Positions 417-63,973 of a stretch of DNA of 64,000 bases are shown here, in pieces (positions within the stretch are counted from its first letter, which is position 1; every line of letters starts with the position of its first letter). The position numbers and the translations under genes were made by a program. The stretch spans positions 2,279,369 to 2,343,368 of the forward strand of contig OZ244621.1 in the NCBI GenBank assembly GCA_965218425.1, written 5' to 3'. The notes under the pieces were generated by a model that was not told where the DNA came from, did no database searches, and worked only from the letters and a program-made list of their open reading frames with translations. The DNA is from an uncultured Candidatus Binatia bacterium. Lineage in GTDB: Bacteria; Desulfobacterota; Binatia; UBA9968; CAXXLF01.

Positions 417-741
417 ACAAAACAAGACGGGCCGCACGTCTATACTTGACGCGTCGTCAAGCATTTCTATGTTTTATCAATATCTTCCATCTCTTCAAAG
501 GAACTCGTTTTGCAGGAAAACAAGCTAATATGCTGAAAATGCCTTTGAATGCCTTTTTCTTAGCTATACTAATCTACTTGTTCTTCTAATTGTTCTTACT
601 GATTCAATGATCCGGGTAAATCTGCGGTTAAGGCTCTTTACGCCTTTAGTGTCTCGGCGCGAAAAACTTTGTGGACCGGTGTTGTTGAGGATTCCATGGG
701 TTAAGATCCAACAGGTCAGGGGAGCAGTGAATTTTTCCGGT

Positions 742-4950: not shown

Positions 4951-5310
4951 GCGGCCATTCTAGCTGAGGGGATGGCCCGTGTCTACTTACTTAAATAGTG
5001 GTTCAGGTTTCGAGTCCACCACACCCGTGGGCCGATTCCCTCTGGGGAAGAGTTCCCACGGGCTCTACGACGTGGTGGGAAACACCTTTAGAGTGGACCT
5101 CCACGCCCGGAGAATAGTTTTGAAGGGATGTTCCTGGGATGATTTACCCGGCGCCTGTGGGGCGGCGCAAAAAACCGGAGGCGGCGGGAAGTGGGTTTAT
5201 CCGGGTTGAAGTGGGTTGATGCGGGCTGACGGAACGAAGATGTTGATTTTGACTTGCCGCGAGATTGCTGATATTACCGAAATCAATCTGGTCGTATCGA
5301 AGAGGCGTCT

Positions 5311-6275: not shown

Positions 6276-6345
6276 GCCGCTTTGCGCTGATGGTAAAACG
6301 CAAAGCGCATGGCGCTATACGCAAAGCGTCTTTTCAGTGACGGGT
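6276..6345 (+). terminator. hairpin-rich putative terminator / repeat element downstream of arsS
   Basis: CCGCTTTGCGC...GCGCAAAGCG inverted repeats (two nested stem-loops) followed by TCTTTTC. Confidence 0.4.
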
Positions 6346-6652
6346 TACGAGTACCGAGTGGAAATTGAGGGTGGGTCAAGGGTGTAGTGAAGTCCGCACT
6401 GTCAACCCTCCACTCCCTAACCTGACCCTTAAACACTTTCCACCGGCTACACCGTTTTCTGCTTACTGCGATCTTCATACGGTTTTCTTTGGCGTCTTGG
6501 CGCGAAAAACTCTTTTGAATTCGTTCTTTTAAAGAATTGATGGGTAGAATTCTAACGGCAAGGCGGGGCCGTGCAGGTCAGGCAGTGAGATTGAGGCGCC
6601 TAGACCCGGCCCCCCACAGGACCCGCAATTCGTTTGGGTTTTGCTCAGCTAG

Positions 6653-7012: not shown

Positions 7013-8317
7013 TCAGGCGCTATCCTCTGCTTTACTCTGCTTCCGATCCGACTCCAGTGACGCCAGCGCCTCCTTTACCAGCTTGCGCCGTAATTCTTTC
7101 TCTTCCTCGCCCGTCAGGTTTGCCGCGCCGGTGACGTGGACTATGCCGTTGCCCAAAACGACGCGGTTGGAACCGACCATCTTTGCAATGGGCATGGCCG
7201 AGGTAATCTGGACCACCGGGATGCCCGCCTTTTCCAGCTCGGTTGATATCGCAGCTCCGCTGCGAGTGCTCGTTCCTCAGGTGGAGGTGAGGATGACGGC
7301 GTCGACCTCCTCCCGCTTCACTTTTTCGGCCATCTCCCTGCCCAGGCGCCGCGTGTTCGAGAGCGGGTTCGATAGACCAGATGTGGAGATGAACTCGTGG
7401 TGGAGTTTTCCGATCCTGCCGCTTCTTTCCATCTCGCGCATGGCGTCGAGGGGCACGAGACGGTCCGGATCCTGTTGAACGAATCTCGGATCATAGCCGC
7501 CGTGAGAGATCTCGTAGTCCTCCCCCCTGAGATCATCCCGGCCGTCGATGCTATAGGAGCCCCACCGGGTGGCGGCTTGTCCTTCGATTTTGTCCGGGTT
7601 GCCCTTCGGAACGAGGCCGCCGTCGGTGATGAGCATGACCTTGGCCTTCGAAAGATCCCCCACGGCGGAGGGCATGGGAACCGGTTTAAAGGAAGTCGGC
7701 AACATCTCAGACTCGAAGGGCTCTCCTTTCACTTTCGTCAGGAGCATATCAACGAGCCGGACGGCGGCCGTCCGATCCGCCAGTTGATCGCGCAGGATAC
7801 CCCGGGAAAGGTAGCCTTCCTCTGCGGGCAGCCCGATGGACTTACCGTGGACGAGCTTTCCTCCCAGACGCGCCATTTTGGTTAGGACTTGCCGCATCTT
7901 GGCGGGGCTCGCACCCGAATTCACGATATAGAGCGCTTCCCGGTTGAGATCCGCCCCCGGGTTCTCGCTGCCCATCCCGGTAACGACGGGAATCCCCAGG
8001 TTGGACTGAACGGCGGCGCAGAGGGACCCCGCCGCCATCCCATATCGACCCGCTTCGAAGCAAGGACCGGCAACGAACAGCTCTGCACCCGCCTCCCGGA
8101 CCTTTGCCAGCACCGCGGCCGTCAACTCCTCCTGGTGTTCCACGGCATGGTTGTCTCCGGAAATGAGGGTCATAACCACACGTGAGCCATCGCCCAGCAG
8201 TTGTTCCAACAGCCTCCCCGGTCCTACGGCCCCCTCACGCGCCTCAAGGGGCATGCCCGCCTGCTCCTCTCCCCCGACTCCGCCGAAAAACTGATTCAAA
8301 TAGTGTACGATTCGCAT
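7013..8317 (-). CDS. grdB: glycine/sarcosine/betaine reductase component B selenoprotein (GrdB family) with in-frame Sec codon
   Basis: N-terminus MRIVHYLNQFFGGVGGEE...GPCFEAGRYG...GIPVVTGM matches GrdB. ORF 7277..8317 ends in TGA (7277-7279) in context EEVDAVILTST-U-GTSTRSGA, and the 67-aa ORF 7013..7216 is its in-frame continuation (...IPVVQITSAMPIA...EEEKELRRKLVKEAL). Confidence 0.85.
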
Positions 8318-8350
8318 TTTTTGACCCTCCTCACCGGATTCGCGACTGGA

Positions 8351-9631
8351 TCAAGTGACCAAAGCCCGCATTCTCGAGGCTCCCTGTTGATTGGTGACGC
8401 CGGCAACGTTCGCAGCGGCGACCTTCGTCGGTCCGGCCAACACCCTCCTCAACTCCGGGGTCGCGGCGATGATCCGATCCACCGGTGCCAACGTGTAATT
8501 CGTTCCGTTTCCGCCGTTGTATACGATGGCATTCACCTCCGGAAAGTTGAAGAGCAGAGCCGACTCGACCCGCCTGTCCCTTGCCATGTCCGAGACCATG
8601 ACAGTGGTTTTTATGCCCATACCTTCCAGGAGCCGAGCGGTCTCCGCCAAGTCGGCATGGGGAACACCGCCGCCGTACTTGGTTAGAATGACGGCGTCCG
8701 CTTTCAACGCCCACCTGACCAGATTCGCAGCCGTCCGACAGTTTCGGTCGCGGTCGAAGTTGTCGGAACCGGCAACGGTCGCCACCGTGCCCACGAAGTT
8801 GAGATGCCGCGCATGGTGGCGACCGTAGAGCTCCAGGATCACGGGGTGATTTTGATAGAAGTAGGTTTCCGCGCCGCCGATGGAAGAATGGTACGATGGG
8901 ACGACGGCGCCGTCCAGCCACTCGTCGGGATGAAGCGGGATGGGCAGCATCCCTTCCGTGTTGGCGCCATAGAGAATGGGCTCGTCCACGCCGGGCTTTC
9001 GCTGGCGCGAGAAGATCTGGCCTACATATGCGACCCGGGGAAGCCCCTCGCGTCCCGCCTCCGCGGGACCCGCCGGGTCGAATTGACGGGTGGATGCCGC
9101 AGGCTGACTCGCCGCAATGCGGGCCATATGAACCGAGAGCCTGAGACCGGCCCGACGATACGCTTTTCCGATGCTTTGAGCGGGCAACTCCGAACGCGTA
9201 CGGGGAATCGCCACCAGGTGGTGCAACGAGGAGTAATTGCTGCCTTCAGCGGCTGCCCCGCTCATCTCCAATACCCGGCCCGTCACGCCCCTGGACTCTC
9301 CCGGAGACCTCTCCGCCAGAACGGTGACGACGGCTCCTTCGAGCACATGGGTCGTCCCCATGCCCGCCGTTTCCGGCGCACCCAGGATGCCCGGGAAATC
9401 AGGGCTTGAGCCCTCTCCTTTAGCTCTGGGCTCGATGATGTCGAAGACGGGCGCGGCCCGACAACTCTCGCCGGGGCGCACGATTTGGAAATCCACGCCG
9501 GTAAGGGCATCGTCTTCAAGAACCAACCGGCGCAGTTCCTCCGGATCGACGACGAGGACCGAGCCGTCGAGACGGGCCGGTGTTTCCAAGCGGATCTCCG
9601 TGATGGGGTGACATGCCAGGGTCAAACGCAT
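8351..9631 (-). CDS. grdE: glycine reductase component B alpha/beta proprotein (GrdE family)
   Basis: MRLTLACHPITEIRLE...IVRPGESCRAAPVFDIIEPR... matches GrdE N-terminus; ~425 aa; internal N-C pair (DRDRNCR) as possible pyruvoyl-forming self-cleavage site. Confidence 0.75.
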   Translation of the reverse strand: MRLTLACHPITEIRLETPARLDGSVLVVDPEELRRLVLEDDALTGVDFQIVRPGESCRAAPVFDIIEPRAKGEGSSPDFPGILGAPETAGMGTTHVLEGAVVTVLAERSPGESRGVTGRVLEMSGAAAEGSNYSSLHHLVAIPRTRSELPAQSIGKAYRRAGLRLSVHMARIAASQPAASTRQFDPAGPAEAGREGLPRVAYVGQIFSRQRKPGVDEPILYGANTEGMLPIPLHPDEWLDGAVVPSYHSSIGGAETYFYQNHPVILELYGRHHARHLNFVGTVATVAGSDNFDRDRNCRTAANLVRWALKADAVILTKYGGGVPHADLAETARLLEGMGIKTTVMVSDMARDRRVESALLFNFPEVNAIVYNGGNGTNYTLAPVDRIIAATPELRRVLAGPTKVAAANVAGVTNQQGASRMRALVT

Positions 9632-9751
9632 TTTTCTTTCCTCTCGTGAAGACCCGGCAAGGGACCGGGAGTCCTCCAGGAGCGAGCGCAATCTCAGACC
9701 GGCTACTGCTCTGCTTATACCTCAAAGCAAGCTTGCCGCCAAGGGTTCAGC

Positions 9752-10219
9752 TTATCCGTCGGCGAGCCCGGAGCGAACCTCCCGCATCGCCGTGGCGATA
9801 GCCTCGGTTTCCACTGCCATCTCGATCAGGCCCACCTCGTCGGCGTAGGTCTCGGGGTCCACCTGCTCCTTGATCTCGGGCTCGGTGATGTGGAAGACGG
9901 GGAGTTTCAAGCCGACGCCGCCGAGCGCTCCCGCCCAGGTCGGATCCCCATCGGTCATGGTCAGGCCGAACAGTTTGCTGCTCTCTGCGGTGGGAGTTCC
10001 GAGAAGGACAACGACACCGGCAGTCCCCGTGGCGTCTACCTTCCGTTTGATTTCTTCTTGACCTTCCAGGTCAAGCGCGCCCGACGCCGTTCAGACGAAA
10101 CAGTGGGTGAGTTCAAGGATGACTTCGGCGCCCGCGCTTTTCGCGCAAAGAGCGATGGAGTTGCCTTGAACGCCGTCTCTTTCTCCCAGAACAATGACTT
10201 TCTTCCCGTTCAGCTTCAT
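9752..10219 (-). CDS. grdA: glycine reductase selenoprotein A (GrdA) with in-frame Sec codon
   Basis: ATG at 10219 with GGGGG RBS. Translation MKLNGKKVIVLGERDGVQGNSIALCAKSAGAEVILELTHCFV-U-TASGALDLEGQEE... closely matches GrdA (…TECFVUTAAGAMDLE…). TGA at 10091-10093; 155 codons. Confidence 0.9.
10057..10075 (-). promoter_or_regulatory. hairpin 3' of the grdA Sec-TGA (candidate SECIS)
   Basis: CUUGACC-UGGAA-GGUCAAG perfect 7-bp stem, 16 nt downstream of UGA on the mRNA. Confidence 0.5.
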
Positions 10220-10335
10220 AACGCCCCCGTCATTCATATCGAGCCGAGACTACGACCTCGCCAAGCCGGAACATCTAGCAGAGGACAGTAGGCGGCAAGA
10301 AATCAACCTCTTGACCTTACTTTTCTTAAATTTAG

Positions 10336-10394
10336 CTTTGACCGCCGCATACCGCTTACTGCGAACTGCTTACTGGTTTCGCTTTGCGCGAGTC
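10336..10394 (+). repeat. 58-bp GC-rich intergenic repeat, copy A (between grdC and grdA)
   Basis: GCCGCATACCGCTTACTGCGAACTGCTTACTGGTTTCGCTTTGCGCGAGTCATC; ~93% identical to the reverse complement of 62384-62445. Confidence 0.8.
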
Positions 10395-10402
10395 ATCCCC
10401 GG

Positions 10403-11854
10403 TTAGTTTTTCGGGTTACGCTCCAATACAAAGGATAATCCGTCCGCCATCTGAGTCATGCGGCCTAAAAACAGGCTCCCTTTGGCCAAGAACATGGCTC
10501 GATCCATAGCCCCCGACACGATACGGTCCACTGCGTGCCCCAGGAAAGGGATCGCCGAGGCGATATGGCCCTGAGTCGGGGCATAACCGGGCATTCCGTG
10601 TGTTTCCGCAAAACTTGAAATCTCGTTAGGGGCGATCTCTTTGTTCCGCGCCGCCAGGGCGGCGATAAGCCTGTAGTTCGTCAACGGAACGTTGCCGTTT
10701 CCGGACGGTTCCGTCACCTCCGGGTTGTGCAGCTCGGTGGCGTACTTGTCGATATCCCCGAAGCGCAATTTTAGTTTCTGCAGCGGCTCGGCCACCAGTG
10801 AGCCGAAGACGGCCTGCTGGCTCGAGCCGGCACCCACCCGGTGCATACCGACGGAATCCAGCCTTAGCCAAGGATGTTTCCCGTCGTCCCCGGAGACGTG
10901 GATGGCAACTCCCGCCAAAACATCCTCCAAGACCGGTTGTTCGTGTTTGAGATGGCCTTGAAACTTCATCCCGAGTTTCGCCAGAGAGCCGCCCCCGACG
11001 ACCACCACATTGCGGAACACACCCGCGCTCACGAGGCTGCCGGCCAGCAGCAAAGCATGGTTCGGACCCGAGCAAAAGCCTTTGACGTCGACCCCGCTCG
11101 CCATGGAGCACCCGCACATTTCCCCGATGGCCTTCGCCAGGTTTCCTCCGCCGCGCTGGTAACGGTCGCCCACCGCCTCCTCGCCGCTGTTTAGAACATA
11201 ATCAATGGCAGCGGCCTGTGCGCCTTCACCCTTCAGGAGCGTCTTCAGGGCCACTACCGCCGTCGCCTTGCAGGCCAGGTTCTCGAGGAGAATGTCGGGC
11301 GCAAGGGAGCGGTCCTCCCGATCGCCCGGCAGGACGCAGCCCACCAATTGCCCGTCCCGCAGATTGAGGGGGAGCGCGGGCGACGGACCGTCGATCCGAG
11401 CCTCGATGGCGGAGAGCGGCTTGCCGTCGTTGAGGTTCGCGGCTTCCACCTTCCCGAAGAGCGGATGGAGTTCCAACGCCCGCCGCGCCGTCCCGAGAAA
11501 ACCTTCCTCGAGCCAAAGCAGCCCGAAGAGATCGCAGAGCTTCATGACGGCGTAAAACTCCTCTTCCGGCATGAATTCACCATGCCGTTGCCGCCGTTCC
11601 GTATCCTGTCTCACGGCAAACCAGGGCCGTTGGAGGGATTTCAGTTCATCGGGGTAGATGGATCCTAGAAATACCCGGTTCGGCGGATAGGACAAAGCGT
11701 CCTCGAAGGAACGGAGCCGCTCCCGAATTCGTTCGCTTACCGCCGCTTCCCGGACGATTTCACGCGCCGGTTTCGAGCCGTGGGTGACAAGTCCGGGCGT
11801 ATGAGATAAAAAGTAGCGAACGGCCTTGATGACTGGTTGATTTCCCGGGGGCAT
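10403..11854 (-). CDS. grdC: glycine reductase complex component C-like protein (GrdC-like, beta-ketoacyl-synthase-like fold)
   Basis: 483 aa; size and context (immediately upstream of grdA-grdE-grdB) fit GrdC. Assignment GrdC versus GrdD is from size only. Confidence 0.5.
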   Translation of the reverse strand: MPPGNQPVIKAVRYFLSHTPGLVTHGSKPAREIVREAAVSERIRERLRSFEDALSYPPNRVFLGSIYPDELKSLQRPWFAVRQDTERRQRHGEFMPEEEFYAVMKLCDLFGLLWLEEGFLGTARRALELHPLFGKVEAANLNDGKPLSAIEARIDGPSPALPLNLRDGQLVGCVLPGDREDRSLAPDILLENLACKATAVVALKTLLKGEGAQAAAIDYVLNSGEEAVGDRYQRGGGNLAKAIGEMCGCSMASGVDVKGFCSGPNHALLLAGSLVSAGVFRNVVVVGGGSLAKLGMKFQGHLKHEQPVLEDVLAGVAIHVSGDDGKHPWLRLDSVGMHRVGAGSSQQAVFGSLVAEPLQKLKLRFGDIDKYATELHNPEVTEPSGNGNVPLTNYRLIAALAARNKEIAPNEISSFAETHGMPGYAPTQGHIASAIPFLGHAVDRIVSGAMDRAMFLAKGSLFLGRMTQMADGLSFVLERNPKN

Positions 11855-20969: not shown

Positions 20970-21193
20970 GGTTCTACGGAAACTTTGAGGGACTTTGCCG
21001 CGTGTTCGAGAACGGCTCTGACCTTCCATTCCTCCACGCCCTCGAACCAATCCAGGAACTGTTCTATCGTGGCGCCGCTCTCAAGGTTCTCGAAGAGGGC
21101 AGATACGGGCACTCTGGTTCCGGTGAACACCCAGGCTCCACTAAGCCTGCCGGGTACGCTTTCGACTGCCGGGCACTTTCCCCAGTCCGTCAT
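20966..21193 (-). CDS. DUF433-family protein (antitoxin-like partner of DUF5615)
   Basis: MTDWGKCPAVESVPGRLSGAWVFTGTRVPVSALFENLESGATIEQFLDWFEGV is a typical DUF433 sequence; the gene is immediately upstream of, and translationally coupled to, the DUF5615 gene. Confidence 0.75.
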   Translation of the reverse strand: MTDWGKCPAVESVPGRLSGAWVFTGTRVPVSALFENLESGATIEQFLDWFEGVEEWKVRAVLEHAAKSLKVSVEP

Positions 21194-21996
21194 ACCGTCA
21201 CCTCGGCAGGAGGGTGTAGGTTTCTATCTACACGGTCTGTCAATGGGCCGTCTTCCTCTGACGAGTCCTGCTCGTCCGCCTCATCGGGCAACCGTGCCGC
21301 CGCTTCGCGAACGTCGAGCTTGCCGGTGACCACGTCGGCGATGAGGCGGGTGCGGTACTCGCGGAGGAGGTTGATTTGGTGCTGGGCGCGGTCAATAGCA
21401 ACGTCGATAATGGCGGCAGCTTTGTCGAGATACGTAACGATGGCGGCTTGTTCGGGGAGGGGGGGTAAAGCAAGGATGAGAGCTTTGACCATGCCCGAGT
21501 TAAGCCCGCGCATGATCGAACCCTTCCCCGCAACCGCGATCTGCTTCTTCACATAGGTGGACTCGTCAATAAGCCGCGAGGCGAATCTGACATTGATGCT
21601 AACGTCAGTTCGCAATCGAAGGAGATGCGAATCCATGATACCCATGGGGGCATCGTCAGGAACATAGGTACACCTTCCGGTTGTTCCCATCATCGTCACC
21701 AACAGATCATTTGGGAGCACTTTGCAAGCGGATAGTTCGTTGAATTTCTCTTGGTCGACGAATTTCGTGCCGCGATCAAAGTCCCTGGCAATGACGTTGG
21801 CCTGGCCGTACACTTTGTAACCCGATGGTGACATCTGTTCGAGCTTCAGTTGGCTGCCGAAAGGGCCGATCTTAATCCCGTCATAAGTGCGGAGCTTTCG
21901 GCGAAGTGCGTCAACCTCCCAATGCACTGGAACCTCGCCCAGCCATGGCACGCCAGAGTCCTTCATCGCGGGGTAGGGCTTGAGATCGGCGATCAT
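21190..21996 (-). CDS. hsdS: type I R-M specificity subunit HsdS, half-size (single target-recognition domain plus conserved C-terminal coiled-coil)
   Basis: N-terminal conserved MKDSGVPWLGEVPVHWEV, one TRD, C-terminal LLREYRTRLIADVVTGKLDVREAAARLP. ~268 aa (full-size HsdS ~400-470). Confidence 0.7.
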   Translation of the reverse strand: MIADLKPYPAMKDSGVPWLGEVPVHWEVDALRRKLRTYDGIKIGPFGSQLKLEQMSPSGYKVYGQANVIARDFDRGTKFVDQEKFNELSACKVLPNDLLVTMMGTTGRCTYVPDDAPMGIMDSHLLRLRTDVSINVRFASRLIDESTYVKKQIAVAGKGSIMRGLNSGMVKALILALPPLPEQAAIVTYLDKAAAIIDVAIDRAQHQINLLREYRTRLIADVVTGKLDVREAAARLPDEADEQDSSEEDGPLTDRVDRNLHPPAEVTV

Positions 21997-22127
21997 GCTT
22001 CAGCCTCTCTGTTACCCATTTGCTTTTCGAAGGCTTGGCGCACGAGGCCCATCACGTAAGGCGGTTCGTCCGGCGTGCTCAAGACTACCTCCACGTCGCC
22101 GTTTCCACTGTGACCGATTCCCGTCAT
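21993..22127 (-). CDS. small hypothetical ORF (44 aa) overlapping the hsdS start (ATGA)
   Basis: MTGIGHSGNGDVEVVLSTPDEPPYVMGLVRQAFEKQMGNREAEA; coupling geometry only; could be a remnant of the upstream truncated gene. Confidence 0.2.
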   Translation of the reverse strand: MTGIGHSGNGDVEVVLSTPDEPPYVMGLVRQAFEKQMGNREAEA

Positions 22128-22321
22128 ATCCCGAGCCTGACCCCTGGGACTGGTTGCATTTCATTGCGCCTGCATCGCGCTGCGTAGGCATTGAAGTTCT
22201 CCGGAAAAGCGCGTTTGAACTGAAGCGCAATTCCGCGCCCCATGACCCCGACGCAGTTGACGGTATTGACCAGAGCTTCGGCTTCTTCGGCGAGGATGTC
22301 GCCGGTCTTGTATTCGATCAT
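22124..22321 (-). pseudogene. darG: DarG-like macrodomain (ADP-ribosyl glycohydrolase antitoxin) N-terminal fragment
   Basis: MIEYKTGDILAEEAEALVNTVNCVGVMGRGIALQFKRAFPENFNAYAARCRRNEM matches the N-terminal macrodomain of DarG antitoxins. ORF stops after 65 aa (full length ~340 aa); no DarT toxin gene nearby. Confidence 0.6.
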
Positions 22322-22454
22322 GGCCTTTCCCCTTCCTCGTCAGTAATACCACTCTTTCTTGATTTCAACAGGAGATCGTTCTCGGGAATGATAGAAGGCA
22401 GACGGTCTACATGGACGATGTGGTAGATCTTGGGATCGGCGGGTACCGGCATGG

Positions 22455-22891
22455 TCAGTACTCGGCATCCGACAGTTCGACATCTTGGTCAATGGGTTCG
22501 CGCCATTCCTCAAACTCATCGACTGGCTCCGGTCCCTCGACCTCGTCCGGGAGTCTTGCCGCCGCCTCGCGCACATCGAGCTTGCCGGTGACAATATCGG
22601 CGATGAGTCGGGTGCGGTATTCGCGGAGAAGGGCAAGTTCGCCGTGCGAGAGGTCAATAGCACGCCGTGCGTCTGCCGACTCTTTGCCGACGACCTCGAC
22701 GATAGTGCGCTGCTCCTCCTGTGGCGGACACAGCAACTTGATACGAAGGAACTCCTCCGGGTACATCCTCAGTCGTGACGAGCGGATACCCGTTGACCGG
22801 CGGATGTACTCGCTCTTATATGACGCCGTACGCAGCAGGAGATCAGCGTACTCGGCAAGCAGTCTCGAAGAGCGGTGTGGTTGGTAGACAG
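22455..22891 (-). pseudogene. hsdS: hsdS C-terminal portion, separated from its N-terminal portion by an IS3-family insertion
   Basis: Translation from the IS boundary reads ...YQPHRSSRLLAEYADLLL...LLREYRTRLIADIVTGKLDVREAAARLPDE (HsdS TRD2 plus C-terminal repeat). Joining 24160.. to ..22887 restores a continuous reading ...GIVSPSYAV-YQPHRS... Confidence 0.8.
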
Positions 22892-24159
22892 TGACCTTGC
22901 CCCCTAAAACGAGTCCAGGTGAAATGTTAGGGATTTTGATTTTAGGAAGGAGGCAAGGATGGCAAGAAAGCGATTTACGGCCGAGCAGATTATCCTCAAG
23001 CTGCGTGAGGCGGAGGTGAGCTTGGCCCAAGGGAAGGCGGTGGGCCAGGTGTGCAAGCAGGTGGGGGTAACCGTGCAGACCTACTACCGGTGGAGGAAGG
23101 AATATGGAGGCCTGAAGATGGATCAGGCCAAGAGGCTCAAGGCCTTGGACAAGGAGAATGCGCGGTTGAAGAAGCTGGTGGCGGATCTATCGCTGGACAA
23201 CCAGATCCTGAAGGAAGTGTCCTCGGGAAACTTCTAGGCCCGGCGAAGAGGAGACGAGCGGTGATATGGGCCAGAGAAAGATTGGGACCTGATCGAGTCT
23301 CCGAACGCCGGGCTTGCCAAGTGTTGGGACAGCCGCGATCGACGCAACGAAGAGTCCGAGAGATCCCGGAAGAGGAAGCAAGACTAGTGGCTCGGATGAT
23401 GGAGCTGGCCAGCGAATACGGGCGATACGGCTACCGGAGGATTACGGCCATGCTGCGTGGGGAGGGGTGGAAGGTCAACCACAAGCGAGTGGAGAGGCTC
23501 TGGAGGCAGGAAGGGCTGAAAGTCCTCAGCCGTCAGCCTAAGCGAGGGAGGCTCCGGTTGACTGATGGCTCCTGCATTCGCCTGAGACCGGCGCATCGAA
23601 ACCATGTGTGGAGTTATGACTTCGTGCACGAGCGAACCGAAGACGGTCGGGCCTTTCGGCTGTTGAGCATCCTGGATGAATACACCCGGGAGTGCTTGGC
23701 GATTGATGTGGCCAGACGGATGAATCACCGGGATGTGCTGGAACGGTTAGCGGAGCTATTCGTGGAACGGGGCGTGCCGCAGTCCCTTCGGTCCGACAAT
23801 GGCCCCGAGTTTACGGCTCAGGCTATCCGGGACTGGCTCAAGGCCATTGGTGTCAGGACACTCTACATCGAGCCTGGCAGTCCTTGGGAGAATGGCTACG
23901 TGGAGAGTTTTAACGGAAAACTCAGGGATGAGCTGCTCAACCGGGAGGTGTTTGAAACCCTGAGGGAAGCTCAGGTGCTGATCGAAAGATGGAGAAGAGA
24001 GTATAACCAGCGGCGGCCTCACAGCGCCCTGGGCTATCGTTCTCCGGCACCGGAGGCCTTTCTGCCCAGAGCGCAGGCTGGGAATTCATCCCCATGGGCT
24101 GGACTCCAGATAATTCCGGCTCTAACTTAAAGGGTGGTACCACTCCTGGGGGCAGGTCA
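22892..24159 (+). mobile_element. IS3-family insertion sequence (orfA HTH plus orfB DDE integrase), 1268 bp, imperfect terminal IRs TGACCTTGCCCCC / GGGGGCAGGTCA, 4-bp target-site duplication ACAG
   Basis: orfA 22959..23237 ([20 protein letters not shown]...[18 protein letters not shown]); overlapping orfB 23051..24130 in the -1 frame with the DDE core (…[10 protein letters not shown]…DNGPEFT…[20 protein letters not shown]…). TSD ACAG at 22888-22891 and 24160-24163. Confidence 0.85.
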
Positions 24160-25154
24160 ACAGCATACGAGGGGCTGACTATTCCAGTCTGCCTAGCAAC
24201 GCCCAGAGCGCCCATCCAAGCCCACATCGTATTGATGACCAGATCGCCGGGCCTACACAACTTGTGCCCGACGTTCGACACCGCCATAAACATCGTGATG
24301 TTCTTCTCACTTCGCGGCGTTACTCCGGTAATGTGAGACACGGACAGCAATTCCTCTGAGCCGGTCTCAGAGCGCTCATCCGTTTCCCGGAAGCACCATT
24401 TCGCTGGCCTTATTTCCCAATGCGCCGGCACCTTTCCCAGCCACTCAACGCCGGAGTCCTTGTAGGCCGGGTAGGGCTGGCCGGTGCAGATGTCCACTTG
24501 GCCCGTGACGGCGCGGTGGATGATGGCCTGCTTCTGCTCCTCCAGCAACTTGATCAGCTTCTGCTTGGCGCGGATGTAGCGCCGGATGCGCCGGTCGGCG
24601 TGGTCGAGGAAGCGGACGATGGCAGCCTGTTCGGGGAGGGGGGGGATAACTGTTCTAATCTCTCGGATTTCACTTTCACTAATAGCGGGTACTGGCCCTG
24701 GTTTCGCAATTGTTGCTAAATCAAGGTGCTCCAGCAGCAACAAGACGAACTGCGGGTTGCCACGACGGACGATGCAGCCCATCAGATTGTTGTCTATACA
24801 GCATGGACGCTCGACCACTCGCCTCTTGTTGGTCAATAGTGCCCCGCCAACTTTAGGGAACACGATTGTTCTAGACGGGAAAATGTTTGCGCCAAGTCTT
24901 GATGCGGTACTACGAGCAACGGAGTTATTCCAACTCCCCATCACTCTGTCGTTATTGGGAAGGTTCATATCGGAGACTTTGAAAAACGGCAGTTCCAGGT
25001 TCTGTTGGCCTTGTTCCAAAATTGGAAATCCAGCTCCGCTACTGAAATGCCCTAACCGCTTCAAGGCTATCACTTCCCAATGCGACGGCACATCACCGAG
25101 CCACTCGACACCGGAGGGCTTGTAGGCGGGGTGAGAGTGGATTCTGGCAGTCAT
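24160..25154 (-). pseudogene. hsdS: hsdS N-terminal portion (TRD1 plus central conserved region plus start of TRD2), interrupted by the IS3 element
   Basis: MTARIHSHPAYKPSGVEWLGDVPSHWEV...PLPEQAAIVRFLD...KQKLIKLLEEQKQAIIHRAVTGQVD...YKDSGVEWLGKVPAHWEI...GIVSPSYAV then runs into IS sequence. Confidence 0.8.
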
Positions 25155-53267: not shown

Positions 53268-53774
53268 TTATGCGTGTTCGGACACGTATTGGCGCATGGT
53301 GTCGAGGGTCTTTTCGCCGATACCTTTAATGTCCTGAAGCTTGTCTTGGTCCAGGGCTTTTTTGAGATCCTTGAGGCTTCGGATCTTATATTTTTTACTA
53401 AGGACCCGGATCGTCTTTGCGCCGAGGCCGGGTATAGCCGTTAACTCCAGGACGGTTTTCGGGACCCGGTGTACCCATTGCTCCATCTTGGCGCAGGTGC
53501 CCGTCTTGAGGAACTCTCCGATGATCCCGGCAATGGTAGCGCCCACGCCGGGAATCTTGTTAAGGCGTCCCTCCTGATGTAATTGAATTACCGATTCGGG
53601 AAAGCGCGAGATGGTATAGGCTACCCGTCCGTACTGTTTCGCGTGGGATTCGTCGTATCCGCAAATAATCAGATAGTCTCCCATACCTTTGATCTGGTCG
53701 GCAATCTTATCATTGCCGCGCCAGCGCTTCCTGCCTTTCGCATCGGTATAGGATTGATCTCCGTTGGTTGTCAT
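53268..53774 (-). CDS. helix-hairpin-helix DNA-binding protein (Pol X N-terminal-like)
   Basis: Two HhH motifs (…IPGVGATIAGII…, …IPGLGAKTIRVL…, …IKGIGEKTLDTM…). Confidence 0.55.
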   Translation of the reverse strand: MTTNGDQSYTDAKGRKRWRGNDKIADQIKGMGDYLIICGYDESHAKQYGRVAYTISRFPESVIQLHQEGRLNKIPGVGATIAGIIGEFLKTGTCAKMEQWVHRVPKTVLELTAIPGLGAKTIRVLSKKYKIRSLKDLKKALDQDKLQDIKGIGEKTLDTMRQYVSEHA

Positions 53775-53959
53775 AGGGGAAAGACCGCGAAGAGTTTTAA
53801 CGCAGATTTACGCGGATACTTGAATAGCAAAGAGCAGAGCACTCAGAGAAGTGAGCAATAAGCAGTGTTCTCCCGTGGCTCAGTACTCTTTTCTCAGTAC
53901 TAAATGGCGTCTTTGCGCGAGGTATCTTTTTTCCGAGTCCGGAATCCAAACCCCCAGTT

Positions 53960-54649
53960 TTAAAGCATACCGTGATCGCTGAAACTGAAATACCGATCGT
54001 GACCGATCACCACATGGTCCAGGACCCGGATGCCCATCACTTCTCCTACTTCTTTTAACCTTCTGGTAATCTCTATATCCTCCTGGCTGGGGGTAGGGTC
54101 GCCGCTGGGGTGATTGTGGACAAAGAGCACTGCTGCGGCGGATTCCCGGATGATGGGATTGTAGACCTCACGGGGATGCACCAAAGAGGCAGTGAGGGAT
54201 CCCTCGGAGATTTTGACCTCACGAATTTTCCGGTTTTTATTGTTTAGGAGGACCGCGTAAAAGATCTCACGATTCACTTTGTGGAACTTGTCCTGGAAGT
54301 GCCGGAAGACGTTTTCCGGGGATTTTAATGGTTCTCCCGCCTTCCATGTTTCACGTCCCATTCTACGGCCTATTTCCAGGCAGGCCTTGATCTGGGCCAA
54401 CTTGGCTGAGCCTAAACCTTTGATAACCCTCAGTTCCTTTGGGGAAGCCTCGTCGAGGCCTTTTAGCCCATTAAACCGTTTTAGTAGGGCCCGGGCATGA
54501 TCCAGGGCGGTTTCTTTTGTACTTGCGTTTCCGGTTCTCAGGATGATGGCGAGGAGCTCGGCCTCGGTGAGGGATTGAGGGCCGTTGTGGAGGAGTTTTT
54601 CCCTGGGCCGGTCCTCTTCCGGCCACTCTTTAATGGTTTGGTATCGAGC
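53960..54649 (-). CDS. radC: RadC-family JAB/MPN domain protein
   Basis: HNHPSGDPTPSQEDIEITRRL JAMM motif; HhH N-domain. Confidence 0.8.
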   Translation of the reverse strand, partial: ARYQTIKEWPEEDRPREKLLHNGPQSLTEAELLAIILRTGNASTKETALDHARALLKRFNGLKGLDEASPKELRVIKGLGSAKLAQIKACLEIGRRMGRETWKAGEPLKSPENVFRHFQDKFHKVNREIFYAVLLNNKNRKIREVKISEGSLTASLVHPREVYNPIIRESAAAVLFVHNHPSGDPTPSQEDIEITRRLKEVGEVMGIRVLDHVVIGHDRYFSFSDHGML

Positions 54650-54695
54650 CATAATAATGCCTATTCCAATAACAAACTTTTTCGCGCCAAGACAC

Positions 54696-54800
54696 CAAGC
54701 TCGCAAAGATAAGAATCTAGCTCTTGTTTCCGAACCTGGCGTTCTTTGCGCCTTTGCGCGAGTTGTCTTTATCCGAATCCCTTTAACTGATGCCCAATAT
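54696..54800. repeat. ~100-bp intergenic repeat (family 2), copy between moaC and radC
   Basis: TTCGCGCCAAGACACCAAGCTCGCAAAGA...CGCCTTTGCGCGAGTTGTCTTTATCCGAATCCC; homologous to 56306-56420 and partially to 53905-53945, 6481-6520, 641-670. Confidence 0.7.
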
Positions 54801-55279
54801 TACTTTTTACGGCTAAAGGTTCCGCTTTTGCCGCCACTTTTTTGAGTTAGCTGGATCTCGCCGATGGTCATCTCACGATCGGCGGCTTTGCACATGTCAT
54901 AGATGGTAAGTGCGGAAACTGACACGGCGGTCATGGCCTCCATCTCGACGCCGGTCTGGCCTGTCACTTTTATGGTAGCTTCAATTTCCACCCTGGAAGG
55001 GTTCTTCTCAGGAGTGAGAGTGATTTCAACTGATGTAATGTTGAGGGGGTGGCACATGGGGACGAGGTCGGACGTCCTTTTAGCTCCCATGATTCCGGCC
55101 ACCCGGGCCACGGAAAAAACGTCTCCCTTTGCCACTCTTTTTTCTATAATCATGGCGAGGGTTTCGGCACGCATGAGTATTTTTCCCCGCGCCGCCGCCA
55201 CTCGGCAGGTTATGTCCTTTTCCGTCACGTCCACCATCCGCGCGCGGCCTTGGGCGTCCAAATGGGAGAGTTTGGCCAT
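54800..55279 (-). CDS. moaC: cyclic pyranopterin monophosphate synthase MoaC
   Basis: 159 aa; MoaC signature (…MVDVTEKD…GDVF…ARVAGIMGAKRTSDLVPMCHPL…). Confidence 0.9.
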   Translation of the reverse strand: MAKLSHLDAQGRARMVDVTEKDITCRVAAARGKILMRAETLAMIIEKRVAKGDVFSVARVAGIMGAKRTSDLVPMCHPLNITSVEITLTPEKNPSRVEIEATIKVTGQTGVEMEAMTAVSVSALTIYDMCKAADREMTIGEIQLTQKSGGKSGTFSRKK

Positions 55280-55350
55280 GGTTGCCTCCTTAGACCCGAT
55301 GGGATCTGCAGTTTCTTCCTGCCAAAGGGTTTTTATGGTACAAGAATCAC

Positions 55351-56292
55351 ATGGAGAAAAAAAGCCACTACCGCGTAATCATTCTGGGATCCGGTCCGGC
55401 GGGCCTTACCGCCGCCCTCTATGCGGCCAGGGCAGAGCTGGAGCCCCTGGTGATAGAAGGGAGCCAGCCGGGGGGCCAACTAACCATTACCACCGACGTG
55501 GAGAACTATCCAGGATTTCCCAAGGGTATCCTTGGTCCCGAACTGATGGATGAATTCAAAAGACAGGCGGAGCGATTTGGTACCCGGACTTTATTTGGCG
55601 ATGTGACAGAGGTCAGCCTCCAGAAAAGGCCTTTTCAGCTCGAAGTAGGTAAAAATACCCTCACGTGCGATACTCTTATTATTTCAACGGGTGCCTCGGC
55701 AAAGCTTTTGGGGCTGGAATCGGAAAAGAAACTGATGGGATACGGCGTCTCGGCCTGCGCCACCTGCGACGGTTTTTTCTTTAAAGAAAAGGAAGTGGTC
55801 TGCGTCGGGGGAGGAGACACGGCCATGGAGGAGGCCACCTTTCTCACCAAGTTCGCTTCAAAAGTCCATGTGGTCCATCGCCGGAACAAGCTCCGGGCAT
55901 CGAAAATCATGCAGGATCGCGCCATGAAAAACCCCAAGATCAATTTCATCTGGGACAGTGTAGTGGAAGAGATTAACGGTGATTCCCAAAATGGTGGCGT
56001 CACCGGTGTGAGGCTAAAGAACGTAAAAACGGGAAAGACCGAGGAGTTTAAGTGTGACGGTGTGTTTCTGGCCATCGGGCACGAACCCAACAGCAAGCCC
56101 TTCGCGGGACAGTTGGAAATGGATGAGCAGGGATATATCCTCACCCATGACGGTACCAAGACCAGCATTCCTGGCGTCTTTGCCTGTGGCGATATACAGG
56201 ACCATGTCTATCGTCAGGCTGTCACCGCTGCCGGCTCCGGTTGCATGGCGGCCATCGATGCGGAACGGTTCTTGGAAAGCCAGGAATCCTGA
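55351..56292 (+). CDS. trxB: thioredoxin-disulfide reductase
   Basis: 313 aa; GSGPAG FAD motif, CATC redox motif, [15 protein letters not shown] motif. Confidence 0.9.
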
Positions 56293-56305
56293 TCACGTCA
56301 ACAAA

Positions 56306-56420
56306 GATTAAAAATTCTCGCGCCAGGACGCCAAGCTCGCAAAGAAGAGATGTTTTCTCGCTGAGGGACTTAGCGCCCTTTGCACAAGCCATCCCATTCC
56401 GGATCCCTTAATCCAGAATT
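56306..56420. repeat. ~100-bp intergenic repeat (family 2), copy downstream of trxB
   Basis: TCTCGCGCCAGGACGCCAAGCTCGCAAAGAAG...CGCCCTTTGCACAAGCCATCCCATTCCGGATCCC. Confidence 0.7.
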
Positions 56421-56605
56421 CAGCAGAGAATTTAAATATCATTGACTCCTCTTTAAAAAGAGCAATGTTTTTGTTTGTCGTCGGCTCCCGACAAACAAAA
56501 GGTTAATTCTCTGCGCCCTCTGCGGTGAGATGTCCGAATCTTTATCTGCGAGAGTCTGCGTTTAATCGTATTTGACGCTTTGCGCCATGCGCTTTGCCTT
56601 TTTGG

Positions 56606-57463
56606 TTACCAATAGTTGTTTGCCATCTGGTAGACCGCGTGGACCACACCCTCACAGACTTTTGCCATGAACCCCAAGTCCAGGGTATCGATGGTGTCGG
56701 TGCGGCCATGATAGTTCGGATTACGAAAAAACGAAGTGTCGGTCACCAAGAGCGCAGGATAGTCGAGGTCCCAAAAAGGGGAATGGTCGCTCAAGCGTAC
56801 CGCGGGAATCAGGGATCCGTTGCCCGGGACCGCCAGGGTTTCAACGGGCAACCCGGGTACTTTTCGTGTCAGGCGGGAAAACTTTTTCAGCAGCGAGTTT
56901 GAGTTCCAATTGCCGACCACAGCAATGAAGTTCCCTTGTTCAGGGTAAAACCAACTGAGCCCAATGGGGTACTTCTGGCTGCCTGGGCGGTTGTCGGTGT
57001 AGCCAACCATTTCGAGAGATATCATGGCATTGACTTTAGCTCCGGCAGCCCTGAGTTTTTTCGCGAAATGAGTGCTACCGATCATGTTGAGCTCTTCAAG
57101 GTTGAAGGCGCAAAATAGCACCGGAGACCGCAGTCTCGTTTGTGCCAGAGTGCGGGCGGCCTCAAGCAACACGGCGACGCCGCTCGCGTTGTCGTCTGCT
57201 CCCGGGGTCCCCATCACGGAATCGAAGTGGGCGCCAACGATGATCAGGGGTGAGCGTGGGTTTGATCCACCCCGGCCAATGATGTTGCGGAATTTTCTCC
57301 TTCTGTAGTTAAAGGTGTCGTTCTCAACGGTAAGCCCGTAGCTCCGGAATTCCTTCTCGATGTAGCTTTCGACTGCAGCGAGATGCCCCGGGCTGCTGAA
57401 GGGACTTCTCTCTGATACGATGCGTTGGAGTTTTTTTTCGATCTCTTTAGGGTCGATTCTCAA
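56606..57463 (-). CDS. M28-family peptidase (aminopeptidase)
   Basis: …[23 protein letters not shown]… M28 zinc-binding pattern. Confidence 0.75.
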
Positions 57464-61164: not shown

Positions 61165-62250
61165 TCAGTCTCGAATATCTTGGGTAAACCAATTCGTTGG
61201 GACTTCCAGGCCAAGGCCAAGTTCCCTTGCCCTGCGGACCACGTACTCGGCCACGGATGCGAACTGGAGACCCTGAGTGCCGTCATTAACGAAAAAGGTT
61301 TTTTGTCCGTTGTCAGTCCGTCCTTGTATCCTTCCAGACATTATTTCGGTCAAGGTGGGATAGCTCTTTTCGAAGAGATCCACAGCGGGTTGGCGAATTC
61401 TTCCCATCTCCGACTCGCTTCCGGCTACGTAGGCGGCATAGCCGGCGATGCGCTGCATCCCTTCATCGAGGCTTAGGATCGTCCCGCGCCCGAGTTTGAT
61501 TACCAGGTGACAGTGATCAACGATTTCCGGAGACCACTCGTTTGGTCTGACGCAGGTGAGGTGGACTCCGGGCGCGATCCAGCCTGGCTCCCGCACCACC
61601 ACCTCAATGGAATCGGTGCAGGTGGCTACGATGTCCGACCCCTTTACGACCTTTTGTATGTCCTGTTCGGGGACCACGTCCAACTTGAGTTGAGCGCTCA
61701 TTTCCCTCGCAAAAGTTTCGCGGTGCTCCCTGGTCGGGCTGTAAACCTTGACCCTGCTCAAATCTCGTACTTCGTGAAAAGCTTCGAGATAGCTGCGTGC
61801 CATGCCGCCGGACCCAAGCATGCCCACCACGGATGCGTCGGCTCTTGCCAGGTACCTGGCGCCCAATCCGGCACAGGCCCCCACCCTCATGTGCTGTATG
61901 ATACCGTCGTTGACCATGGCCAGCGGCTCCGCGTTACGGGTGGAAAAAACCAGGATCAATCCACAATAGGTCCCCGGTTCGATGCAGTACTTCTCAACTG
62001 TCTTTCCATCCGGCCAATGAAGCATGTCGGACTTCATGCGAATGGCAAAAGTCTCATGGGTACGGGAGACTCCCTCCATGGTACCCCAGCGAAACATTAA
62101 CTCCGGGTCATCGTTTGGAGCGAAGATATCGATCCTCGGTCTGTAACGCGCTCGATCCTGGCTGAGATCCTTGTAGCCGACCTCCAGGGCTTCCAGACAT
62201 CCCTTCATGTTGAGGATCTTTTCCACAGTCTGGTTATTTATGATTAGCAT
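61165..62250 (-). CDS. ornithine cyclodeaminase / mu-crystallin family protein
   Basis: 361 aa; Rossmann GSGGMARS motif and OCD-family pattern. Confidence 0.75.
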   Translation of the reverse strand: MLIINNQTVEKILNMKGCLEALEVGYKDLSQDRARYRPRIDIFAPNDDPELMFRWGTMEGVSRTHETFAIRMKSDMLHWPDGKTVEKYCIEPGTYCGLILVFSTRNAEPLAMVNDGIIQHMRVGACAGLGARYLARADASVVGMLGSGGMARSYLEAFHEVRDLSRVKVYSPTREHRETFAREMSAQLKLDVVPEQDIQKVVKGSDIVATCTDSIEVVVREPGWIAPGVHLTCVRPNEWSPEIVDHCHLVIKLGRGTILSLDEGMQRIAGYAAYVAGSESEMGRIRQPAVDLFEKSYPTLTEIMSGRIQGRTDNGQKTFFVNDGTQGLQFASVAEYVVRRARELGLGLEVPTNWFTQDIRD

Positions 62251-62383
62251 GGCTCATCCCTATCATATTTCGAAAGCCCAGCCAAAGTTTGAAGAACTAT
62301 TAACCGTAGATATTCGCAGACTGGGAAACGGCAAGATGCATAGTGCAAAACGCAGGAAGTGGATTGCTGAATCGGGATGAAGA

Positions 62384-62445
62384 TGTCTCGCGCAAAGCGA
62401 AACCAGTGGGCAGTTCGCAGTGAGCGGTATGCGGTAGTCAAGGTT
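62384..62445 (-). repeat. 58-bp GC-rich intergenic repeat, copy B (inverted; between ocd and MFS transporter)
   Basis: Reverse complement CCGCATACCGCTCACTGCGAACTGCCCACTGGTTTCGCTTTGCGCGAGACATC. Confidence 0.8.
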
Positions 62446-62593
62446 GAATTCAAGAAAGGCAAGGTGGAGGGACTGATTTCTTGCTGCTTGCTGCCTCCCG
62501 CTCGCTGTTCTCGCTTTGCGAACTTACCCCCCTATTGAACCGGTTCCTTTTGTCGTATAGTCTTTCATCCAAAACGAATGCCCCTAGCCGGCA

Positions 62594-63973
62594 TTGGACT
62601 CCAAAAAATTTATTGAACTCAGCAACACCAACCATCCGATGCTGAAGCGAATCGTTGACGTAAAAAACGGCGAATCCCGTGCCCTGTGGTGGTCTTTTGC
62701 ATACTTCTTTTTTTTGTTGTGCAGCTACTACATTTTACGCCCGGTGCGAGATGAAATGGGCATCCAGGGCGGAGTGAGAAGTCTCAAGTGGGTGTTCACG
62801 GGTACCTTTGTGGCCATGCTATTCGCCGTTCCGATCTTTGGTGCAGTGGCCGCACGGTTCCCCCGGCAAAAACTCCTGCCGATTGTTTATTATTTTTTCA
62901 TTATCGACATCCTGATTTTCTATGTCTTGTTGGAAAGCGGCATCGCAACCCCTTATGTGGCGCGGGCCTTCTTTATCTGGGTCAGCGTCTTCAACCTCTT
63001 TGTGATCTCTGTCTTCTGGAGTTTTATGGCAGACTTGTTCACCAACGAACAGGCACGGCGACTTTTTGGCTTTATTGCTGCCGGTGGGAGCGCGGGGGCC
63101 ATCATAGGTCCATCGGTGACGGCGGTGCTCGCCAGGCCCCTTGGAACGTTTAACCTGTTATTGATTTCTGCCGTGATTCTGGGTTTGGCGGTTGTATGTA
63201 TCCGGCAATTGGGAAACTGGGCCGCACAGTCCGAAGGCATTGTCACTTCGAATGAAAATGAGATTTCGGAAGAAGTAACGGCGACGGACGCCCAATATGC
63301 GAAGGCGCCTGTTGGAGGGGGTGTCTTCACCGGGATAAAGGCGGTTTTCCAGTCACCCTATCTACTGGGAATCGGCCTTTATATCTGGCTATACACGACG
63401 CTGTCTACCTTTTTGTATTTTGAGCAGGCCCATATCGTGAAGGAGGCTTTTGCCGACTCAGAAAGCAGAACTGCACTATTCGCTTACATGGACCTTGCGG
63501 TGAATTCCCTCACGGTGGTTGGACAGGTGCTCGTCACGGCGAAAATCGTTGGCCGTTTTGGTCTGCCAATTACCCTGGCACTTTTACCTGGCCTGGCGGT
63601 ATTGGGCTTTTTCGTGTTGGGATTATTCCCTTCTCTCGCCGTGCTCATCGGTTTTCAAATCGTGCGCAGGGCCGGTAACTATGGCATCGCATGGCCGGCC
63701 CGGGAGATGCTCTACACGGTGATAAGCCGTGAGGAGAAGTACAAGGCAAAAAATTTCATCGACACGGTGCTTTACCGTGGGGGCGACGCGGTGAGCGGAT
63801 GGGTTTTTGCAGCTCTGCAAGGCGCAGGACTCGGGCTCTCGGCGATCTCTTTTGTGGCCGCTCCCATTGCCGCTGTTTGGTTGGTCACGGGCTGGGGATT
63901 GGGAAAGAAACAGGAGACCCTACGAACACCACCAACCAACGAAGCAATACCGGAACACGTTTTACAGACCTGA
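62594..63973 (+). CDS. MFS-type transporter (TLC / nucleotide-transporter-like)
   Basis: 459 aa, ~12 TM segments; N-terminal …LCSYYILRPVRDEMG… motif. Confidence 0.55.
   Translation: MDSKKFIELSNTNHPMLKRIVDVKNGESRALWWSFAYFFFLLCSYYILRPVRDEMGIQGGVRSLKWVFTGTFVAMLFAVPIFGAVAARFPRQKLLPIVYYFFIIDILIFYVLLESGIATPYVARAFFIWVSVFNLFVISVFWSFMADLFTNEQARRLFGFIAAGGSAGAIIGPSVTAVLARPLGTFNLLLISAVILGLAVVCIRQLGNWAAQSEGIVTSNENEISEEVTATDAQYAKAPVGGGVFTGIKAVFQSPYLLGIGLYIWLYTTLSTFLYFEQAHIVKEAFADSESRTALFAYMDLAVNSLTVVGQVLVTAKIVGRFGLPITLALLPGLAVLGFFVLGLFPSLAVLIGFQIVRRAGNYGIAWPAREMLYTVISREEKYKAKNFIDTVLYRGGDAVSGWVFAALQGAGLGLSAISFVAAPIAAVWLVTGWGLGKKQETLRTPPTNEAIPEHVLQT

Follow-up and report, generated by a model that had tools for sequence, protein, structure and literature searches.

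We analysed a family of short intergenic repeats, here called family 2, in a stretch of 64,000 nucleotides from an uncultured Candidatus Binatia bacterium (the window). Family 2 is probably the gene-less, miniature form of a hairpin-bounded cassette that carries a gene of the GxxExxY family, much as a MITE (miniature inverted-repeat transposable element) or a REPIN, a hairpin made of two repetitive extragenic palindromes (REPs), is the gene-less form of a larger system. Two close relatives have a gene between these arms at one orthologous site, where the arms in the window enclose none. The arrangement of arm, gene and arm is general, and pairing of the stem is kept by compensatory changes. 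The tandem-word build of the arms, their near-identity across phyla and their bracketing of GxxExxY genes are features that go beyond the original prediction, which was made from the letters of the window and described a dispersed repeat of about 100 bp. Intergenic palindromic repeats are common, and are understood in few systems, such as REPs with the REP-associated tyrosine transposase (RAYT) and MITEs derived from insertion sequences (IS). This family is now tied to a specific, testable partner, a widespread 125-aa putative nuclease whose function is unknown and which is often present in several copies.

Family 2 in the window and at orthologous sites

Two motifs of the family are far above chance in the window. 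The CTTTGCGCGAG core occurs four times against 0.02 expected, and an 18-nt module of the 5' side, TCGCGCCRRGACRCYAAR, four times against 0 expected. A generic regular expression for two words was too permissive for this census (4 matches against 2.4 expected), and the specific motifs were used instead. The window was also searched with a profile of seven copies from other Binatia metagenome-assembled genomes (MAGs), its own sequence being excluded to avoid circularity, and two full and four partial copies were recovered. The consensus has ordered blocks, namely a 5' flank, a 5' arm, a loop, a 3' arm and a tail of about 60 nt, so that the similarity is more than GC-richness or low complexity. 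On both the motif counts and the independent profile, the predicted dispersed family is real.

A full copy is an imperfect palindrome, with arms of about 28 nt, a loop of about 23-40 nt and a lineage-specific tail. Each arm holds three words of 8-9 nt, CGCCAAGA or CGCAAAGA, with the complements TCTTGGCG or TCTTTGCG, and the arm ends are closed by TCTCGCG...CGCGAGA. Copy A (54670-54782, plus strand, profile E=8.8e-26) lies between the stop of moaC (54800) and the start of radC (54652). Its 5' arm is at 54680-54709 (TTTCGCGCCAAGACACCAAGCTCGCAAAGA), its loop at 54710-54734, its 3' arm at 54735-54762 (CCTGGCGTTCTTTGCGCCTTTGCGCGAG) and its tail at 54763-54782. Copy B (56306-56447, plus strand, E=1.8e-18) begins 14 nt past the stop of trxB, between the convergent trxB and M28 peptidase genes; it has its 5' arm at 56316-56345, its 3' arm at 56369-56388 (CTTAGCGCCCTTTGCACAAG) and its tail at 56389-56447 (TCCGGATCCC...TTTAAATATCATTG). 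The two have 31 nt in common at 90% identity. They had been placed at 54696-54800 and 56306-56420: the site of A and the start of B stand, but A truly starts about 25 nt earlier, at 54670, and B extends about 30 nt more, to about 56447.

The orthologous loci of relatives were reached through RadC, and show conserved synteny of hisF, the M28 gene, trxB, moaC, radC and a gene for an HHH protein. Between moaC and radC, the window has copy A, that is, arms without a gene. In loci L120 (RadC 91% identical) and L208 (89%), the same arms (CTCTCGCAAAGACGCAAAGGACGCCAAGG ... CTTTGCGCCCTTTGCGTCTTTGCGAGAAAAA) enclose an open reading frame (ORF) of 128 aa, which encodes a GxxExxY protein (TIGR04256, 140 bits; PF13366 PDDEXK_3). 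The alignment of the window with L208 through flanks and arms gave 29/35 and 18/22. Locus L211 (87%) has the 3' arm only, beside a different, CGCAGAG-type hairpin, and L121 (85%) has the arms around 200 nt of other repeats. Copy B has its orthologue at 2874-2996 of L120, where the window holds about 150 nt of extra modules, and the element is lacking in more distant relatives. These differences in content at orthologous sites indicate a fast turnover. Since a gene stands between the arms at the L120 and L208 site and none in the window copies, the latter are taken as the gene-less form.

The partial copies predicted near 53905, 6481 (in reverse complement) and 641 were recovered at 53906-53951 (plus strand, E=7.5e-8), 6489-6545 (minus strand, E=2.9e-11) and 635-697 (minus strand, E=1.8e-4). 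The first of them, copy C, consists of a 3' arm and tail (GGCGTCTTTGCGCGAGGTATCTTTTTTCCGAGTCCGGAATCC) directly past the stop of radC (53960, minus strand), and is joined to another word type, CTCAGTACT; L120 keeps the same chimera. At 6489-6545, only the 5' flank and 5' arm are present (TTTTTCGCGCCAAGACGCCAAAG), downstream of a radical-SAM/DUF3641 gene (5311-6273, plus strand), and at 635-697 only the 5' arm (TTTTTCGCGCCGAGACACTAAAGGCGTAAAGA), 45 nt downstream of the stop of a DUF3179 gene (742, minus strand). A fourth partial copy, at 62361-62397 (minus strand, E=4.3e-4), comprises a 3' arm and tail (CTTTGCGCGAGACATCTTCATCCCGATTCAGCAATCC) and adjoins a copy of another repeat, family 1. It lies in the divergent intergenic region between an OCD gene (61165-62250, minus strand) and an MFS gene (62594-63973, plus strand), so that the predicted placement of all copies between genes, mostly at gene 3' ends, holds for most of them and not for this one, which has gene starts on both sides. 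A further family-2 copy was found shortly beyond the window end (L001 19863-19960).

Proposed GxxExxY cassettes and the spread of their arms

A published listing gives GxxExxY as 'function unknown, multiple transfers' (PMC3424549), and one search returned more than 7,800 close homologues. Inverted repeats of 25-35 nt, made of three words, bracket the gene in Gemmatirosa (Gemmatimonadota; CGCAGAGG), in Sphingomonas, where it lies between fabD and fabG (CGCGAAGG), and in Bernardetia (Bacteroidota; CACAGAGA). A metagenome scan returned 80 GxxExxY loci, 75 of them with enough flanking sequence. A run of purine words was present within 200 nt upstream in 59/75, a run of pyrimidine words downstream in 59/75 and both in 51/75, for a chance level of about 0.3% per flank. 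The 3' arm started most often within about 10 nt of the GxxExxY stop (median 16 nt). These arms have the common closing (T)CTC[G/A]CG / CG[T/C]GAG(A), and the CGCCAAG arm type of the window was present at several of the loci (e.g. L137, L173). In 24 arm pairs, compensatory changes were found at 15/23 stem positions. The nearest protein neighbour had the same arm type (CGC or CAC words) in 51/57 cases, and 0/2000 permutations reached the observed difference. In GxxExxY alignments, the conserved D and E-x-K residues of PD-(D/E)XK nucleases are intact.

For the proposed cassette class, arms were defined as 2-3 tandem CRCNRAGR words closed by (T)CTC[GA]CG / CG[TC]GAG(A). Copy A has this pattern (TTTCGCGCCAAGACACCAAGCTCGCAAAGA / ...CTTTGCGCCTTTGCGCGAG) and copy B an analogous one, while neither has the GxxExxY ORF between its arms. 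Other small-ORF families between word arms, such as the four-helix-bundle protein of intervening sequences (IVS), were absent from the loci examined; IVS-protein genes may share the arm type, though this was not found in those loci. GxxExxY genes were co-oriented with the upstream neighbour in 76% and with the downstream one in 73% of cases, figures that have no control, and we judge such co-orientation to be no more than usual for adjacent bacterial genes.

The arms were also searched as a degenerate 20-mer, TYTCGCGCCRRGACRCYAAR, in one genome per species. This 20-nt 5' arm was found at at least 118 loci in at least 12 phyla: Binatia, Planctomycetota, Acidobacteriota, Cyanobacteria, Verrucomicrobiota, Nitrospirota, Desulfobacterota, several Proteobacteria and others, with Botrimarina, Scytonema, Tolypothrix and Natronospira as isolates among the matches. 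By our own estimate, which assumes uniform base composition, roughly 70 matches are expected by chance, and about 15 of the listed matches are coding coincidences, e.g. in a conserved ...SRQDAK... stretch, which we take to be FlhA-like. The complementary arm, however, followed within 260 nt downstream in 51/122 of the matches listed, against about 1% expected, and most listed matches continue into the third word, nCGCMAAG. Within one genome, the arms are conserved and the loops differ; in some lineages they contain other palindromic modules, nested as further copies. Among these pattern loci, an ORF between arms spaced 260-2000 nt apart was seen in only 2 cases, both of them filled with other nested repeats. 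Several of the cross-phylum matches are in Scytonema, Tolypothrix and Anabaena. The cyanobacterial small dispersed repeats and heptamer short tandemly repeated repetitive (STRR) sequences of Elhai et al. (2008) are reportedly very short and word-like as well, and nested in intergenic hairpins.

The arms also bear on annotation and assembly. On a Sphingomonas parapaucimobilis plasmid (L126, 371-799), the annotated GxxExxY coding sequence reads through both arms, and the deposited protein contains their translations (..RRREDAK.., ..SSRLRVNQ); in this way, arms may be a common cause of inflated or spurious ORF annotations. Most close GxxExxY homologues (74-94% identity) are on contigs of 0.5-2 kb, which fits multi-copy cassettes breaking short-read assemblies.

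Gene-less copies, their proposed propagation and rival explanations

The full unit, as found in relatives and in many phyla, starts with (T)CTC[G/A]CG and a 5' arm of three purine-rich words of 8-9 nt (CRCNRAGR; here CGCAAAGA/CGCCAAGA). The middle is occupied by a gene for a predicted minimal PD-(D/E)XK nuclease of about 125 aa (TIGR04256/PF13366), and the end by a complementary 3' arm, starting a few nt from the stop codon. The window copies have the arms, the TCTCGCG/CGCGAGA ends and the Binatia-specific tail, with a short loop in place of the gene. In the mechanism that we propose, such copies would be non-autonomous, and propagated or maintained in trans by the GxxExxY nuclease, which would recognise the hairpin or cruciform; by analogy, this mobilisation would resemble that of REPIN by RAYT (PMC3116915) or that in MITE/transposase pairs. 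Once transcribed, the long stems might be processed by RNase III or might block 3' exonucleases, an RNA-level role that could parallel those of the ORF-bearing IVS of rRNA (PMC4990558) and of REPs.

Gene-less hairpins far outnumber gene-bearing ones. The two plasmids of Gemmatirosa, of about 1 Mb, have at least 40 arm sites each, and the 3 GxxExxY sites found are all on plasmid 1; a 50-kb sample of Gemmatirosa contained 5 empty hairpins and 1 frameshifted gene between two hairpins. Neither the window nor about 0.8 Mb of hairpin-bearing loci (the 118 pattern loci) yielded a GxxExxY ORF in a jackhmmer search. In Binatia, four contigs of a single MAG, as well as other MAGs, carry the gene-less unit with loop and tail conserved. 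As loop and tail are common to unrelated loci, the gene-less unit itself seems to have been copied, rather than formed by independent deletion each time. In a Methylacidiphilum MAG (L098, about 4917-5163), three complete CGCCAAG/CGCAAAG hairpins stand head to tail with a period of 84 nt, and the gene-less hairpin can therefore form tandem arrays as well.

Several results weigh against a miniature cassette moved by GxxExxY. The window is without the gene, and a partner acting in trans would have to be sought in the rest of the source genome. Copy A's loop, compared with the ends of the ORF, scored at the shuffled mean, with no significant similarity to mark a remnant of the ORF, which gives no support to an origin by internal deletion. 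Neither target-site duplication nor clean empty site was seen for the window copies, for about 50 GxxExxY loci or in relatives. Mismatches in the arms (31 A.C against 25 G.T) had no strand asymmetry, hence no sign of RNA-level selection on the sense strand, and gene-less copies are found either way round with respect to host genes. Shared host lineage could account in part for the match of arm type with protein. Finally, the nuclease activity of GxxExxY and its putative action on the hairpin are predicted from family membership only. Its sequence had no match in the Protein Data Bank (PDB). The AlphaFold model has an alpha-alpha-beta-beta-beta-alpha-beta core and is mediocre (predicted local distance difference test score, pLDDT, 70), and Foldseek against the PDB gave no match with E<0.04, the top weak ones being Cas4 and archaeal splicing endonucleases.

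In the main rival account, palindromes of the host or of REP-like kind would have been there before and would be the homing targets of free-standing GxxExxY genes; the window copies would then be empty targets, spread by other means, and not derivatives of the cassette. A copy A loop without a detectable ORF remnant is what this account would give, hairpin loops are indeed hot spots for nested insertion of other modules, and the Gemmatirosa gene lies between two complete hairpins, not inside one. However, the arms are tight against the ORF, one arm architecture is found across phyla and arm type tracks protein relatedness, all of which fits co-inheritance as one unit. Homing also gives no account of how the empty hairpins spread, and we regard it as unlikely. 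That the hairpins are RNA structures selected by the host (terminators, mRNA stabilisers, RNase III sites or small RNAs), recurring by function and not by mobility, seems decidedly improbable, although folding and position speak for it. Copy A folds at -34.3 kcal/mol on the minus strand against -28.2 on the plus strand. For copy B, the minus strand reaches -47.2 kcal/mol (z=-4.15, much more stable than shuffled sequences) and the plus strand only -25.8 (z=-0.5), a difference due to G:U pairs on the minus strand. In both copies, the better-folding strand is that of local transcription, the minus strand being the transcribed one for moaC-radC and for the M28 gene; and 5/6 copies are downstream of a gene stop, if A, within the moaC-radC transcription unit, is counted. 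Against a host function stand the mixed orientation of the copies and their fast turnover among relatives with 85-91% RadC identity, and it leaves both the identical arms across phyla and the bracketing of a nuclease gene unexplained. Rfam gave 0 matches at gathering score in the whole window, and, at E<=10, a single nonsense match (E=9.4) in 53700-56700. A promoter and terminator scan had no excess over shuffles. As intrinsic terminators the copies were rejected: the stems end without a T-run or U-tract, the interval 53700-56700 has 4 terminator-like sites against 3.8 expected, and a true terminator-like hairpin is present separately from copy B, at 56468-56501. A sigma-54 reading of TGGCG...TTGCG was also discarded on inspection, the GG-GC spacing being 9-10 nt and not 12.

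The remaining accounts assign the repeats to known mobile classes. The original prediction had left a choice between a MITE and a conserved REP or terminator hairpin; inverted-repeat arms forming a hairpin are present, and target-site duplications, U-tract and GTAG/CGTC tag are not. A REP unit is a palindrome of 20-40 bp with a conserved terminal GTAG or CGTC tetranucleotide, by which two super-families are distinguished (PMC3733652). Family 2 resembles the REPIN/REP and RAYT system (PMC3116915, PMC3733652) in being made of short extragenic palindromes that form hairpins in single-stranded DNA or mRNA, in having many non-coding copies and very few of a small gene that these repeats flank, and in its positions at 3' ends and between convergent genes. 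Like REPINs, its copies are inverted doublet hairpins, extragenic and many per genome. The repeats could thus be REPs or REPINs mobilised by a RAYT elsewhere in the genome, the association with GxxExxY being incidental, but this is very improbable. The arms, of about 28 nt, are three tandem words of 8-9 nt ending in TCTCGCG...CGCGAGA or CTCACG...CGTGAG, with CGTC only inside words and no GTAG/CGTC tag at the termini; REPs are lineage-specific, whereas family-2 arms are nearly identical across phyla; and the gene between the arms, in the 51/75 loci with both, is the PD-(D/E)XK family member GxxExxY, not a Y1/HUH transposase. No RAYT turned up, no search aimed at Y1 transposases having been made. 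Bacterial MITEs (PMC10969869) are likewise non-autonomous, short and intergenic, with terminal inverted repeats and presumed mobilisation in trans, and family-2 elements, of about 110-200 nt, have no coding capacity. A classical IS-derived MITE moved by a DDE transposase is nevertheless hardly credible here. No duplication was found outside the arms in the window copies or the GxxExxY loci, and no IS with such ends in the window or in about 0.9 Mb of fetched loci. The inverted repeats differ from IS ends in being arrays of words, only GxxExxY was found inside them, and the candidate parent encodes a putative nuclease. The 23S rRNA IVS of Coxiella burnetii with its S23p ORF (PMC4990558) is also a small selfish insert with an inverted-end stem and a loop ORF, inside a host transcript, and is tolerated since the stem allows excision by RNase III. 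Family 2, in contrast, is intergenic: all copies are between protein-coding genes, Rfam finds no rRNA in the window, and the associated ORF is GxxExxY, not the four-helix-bundle IVS protein.

Beyond the reading of family 2 as a miniature cassette, we suggest tentatively, as a possibility on which we would not insist, that GxxExxY genes are the autonomous members of an unrecognised, multi-phylum class of selfish elements, with family 2, and probably family 1, as their non-autonomous offspring. If true, the class would be a nuclease-based counterpart of RAYT/REPIN and an intergenic counterpart of the ORF-bearing rRNA IVS. Miniature palindromic mobile elements are known, and the candidate novelty is the type of partner enzyme. 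In a literature search, no paper contained the arm sequence, nor did any connect GxxExxY/PF13366 with repeats; the link may still be known. The near-identical hairpin arms of Binatia, Planctomycetota, Acidobacteriota, Cyanobacteria, Gemmatimonadota, Bacteroidota and Proteobacteria suggest that one system spans these groups. Should the nuclease act on the hairpin, a function would be found for GxxExxY, and a large part of the 'orphan' intergenic repeats and of the small spurious ORFs in MAGs (arm translations, e.g. QRRKGRQG, LGVLARE), as well as many assembly breaks, would be explained.

Family 1, other modules and neighbouring genes

Family 1 is represented by two copies of 140 nt that are 79% identical. 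The copy at 10258-10397 (plus strand) is a nested hairpin whose plus strand folds with z=-3.69; that at 62382-62521 (minus strand) is inverted relative to it. The outer stem is built from family-2-type words (CTCGCCAAG ... CTTTGCGCGAG) and the inner stem from CAGTAAG-type words. The CTTTGCGCGAG core is therefore common to both families, as had been predicted, and the outer-stem words make families 1 and 2 related.

Other modules share the intergenic regions. The hairpin at 56468-56501, TTTTTGTTTGTCGTCGGCTCCCGACAAACAAAAG, is terminator-like in both directions and lies between the convergent trxB and M28 genes. A near-identical copy of it is found at moaC-radC in relatives L209-L211, and it thus behaves as a movable module too. 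Further word doublets, TTCTCTGCGCCCTCTGCGGTGAG (CGCAGAG type) and GACGCTTTGCGCCATGCGCTTTGCC, occur at 56505-56530, 56574-56607 and 6276-6330 of the window, GACGCTTTGCGCCATGCGCTTTGCC being inverted at 6297-6330. They look like additional arm types, alike in general kind; in Gemmatirosa, the GxxExxY gene is bracketed by arms of the CGCAGAG type. A second cross-phylum motif, nested in hairpin loops as inverted pairs (GTCATTTCGACCGAAGGGAGAAATC, GTCATCCCGAACGAAGTGAGGGATC, GTCATTCCGAGCGCAGCGAGGAATC), was seen in L002, L028, L088, L111 and L086 (e.g. L086 7100-7300).

Around the full copies, the genes are those of the HHH protein (53268-53774), radC (53960-54652) and moaC (54800-55279), all on the minus strand, then trxB (55351-56292, plus strand) and the M28 peptidase gene (56606-57463, minus strand). 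Among RadC homologues at 75-85% identity, the named ones come from Candidatus Binatia and 'Deltaproteobacteria' MAGs. Elsewhere in this Binatia-like genome, the window has a glycine/sarcosine/betaine reductase cluster (7013-11854, minus strand). It comprises GRDB (7277-8317), the ORF of which probably extends beyond a selenocysteine (Sec) codon, Gly_reductase (8351-9691), grdA (9752-10219), with an in-frame TGA (CFV*TASG) interpreted as selenocysteine, and a DUF5940/ACP_syn_III-like gene (10403-11854). The family-1 hairpin at 10258-10397 lies within this operon, between its last gene and grdA, both on the minus strand. At 21190-25154, the direct repeats D1, D2 and D6 (135, 59 and 47 nt; 73-83% identity) are inside long ORFs and look like parts of paralogous genes, not intergenic repeats.

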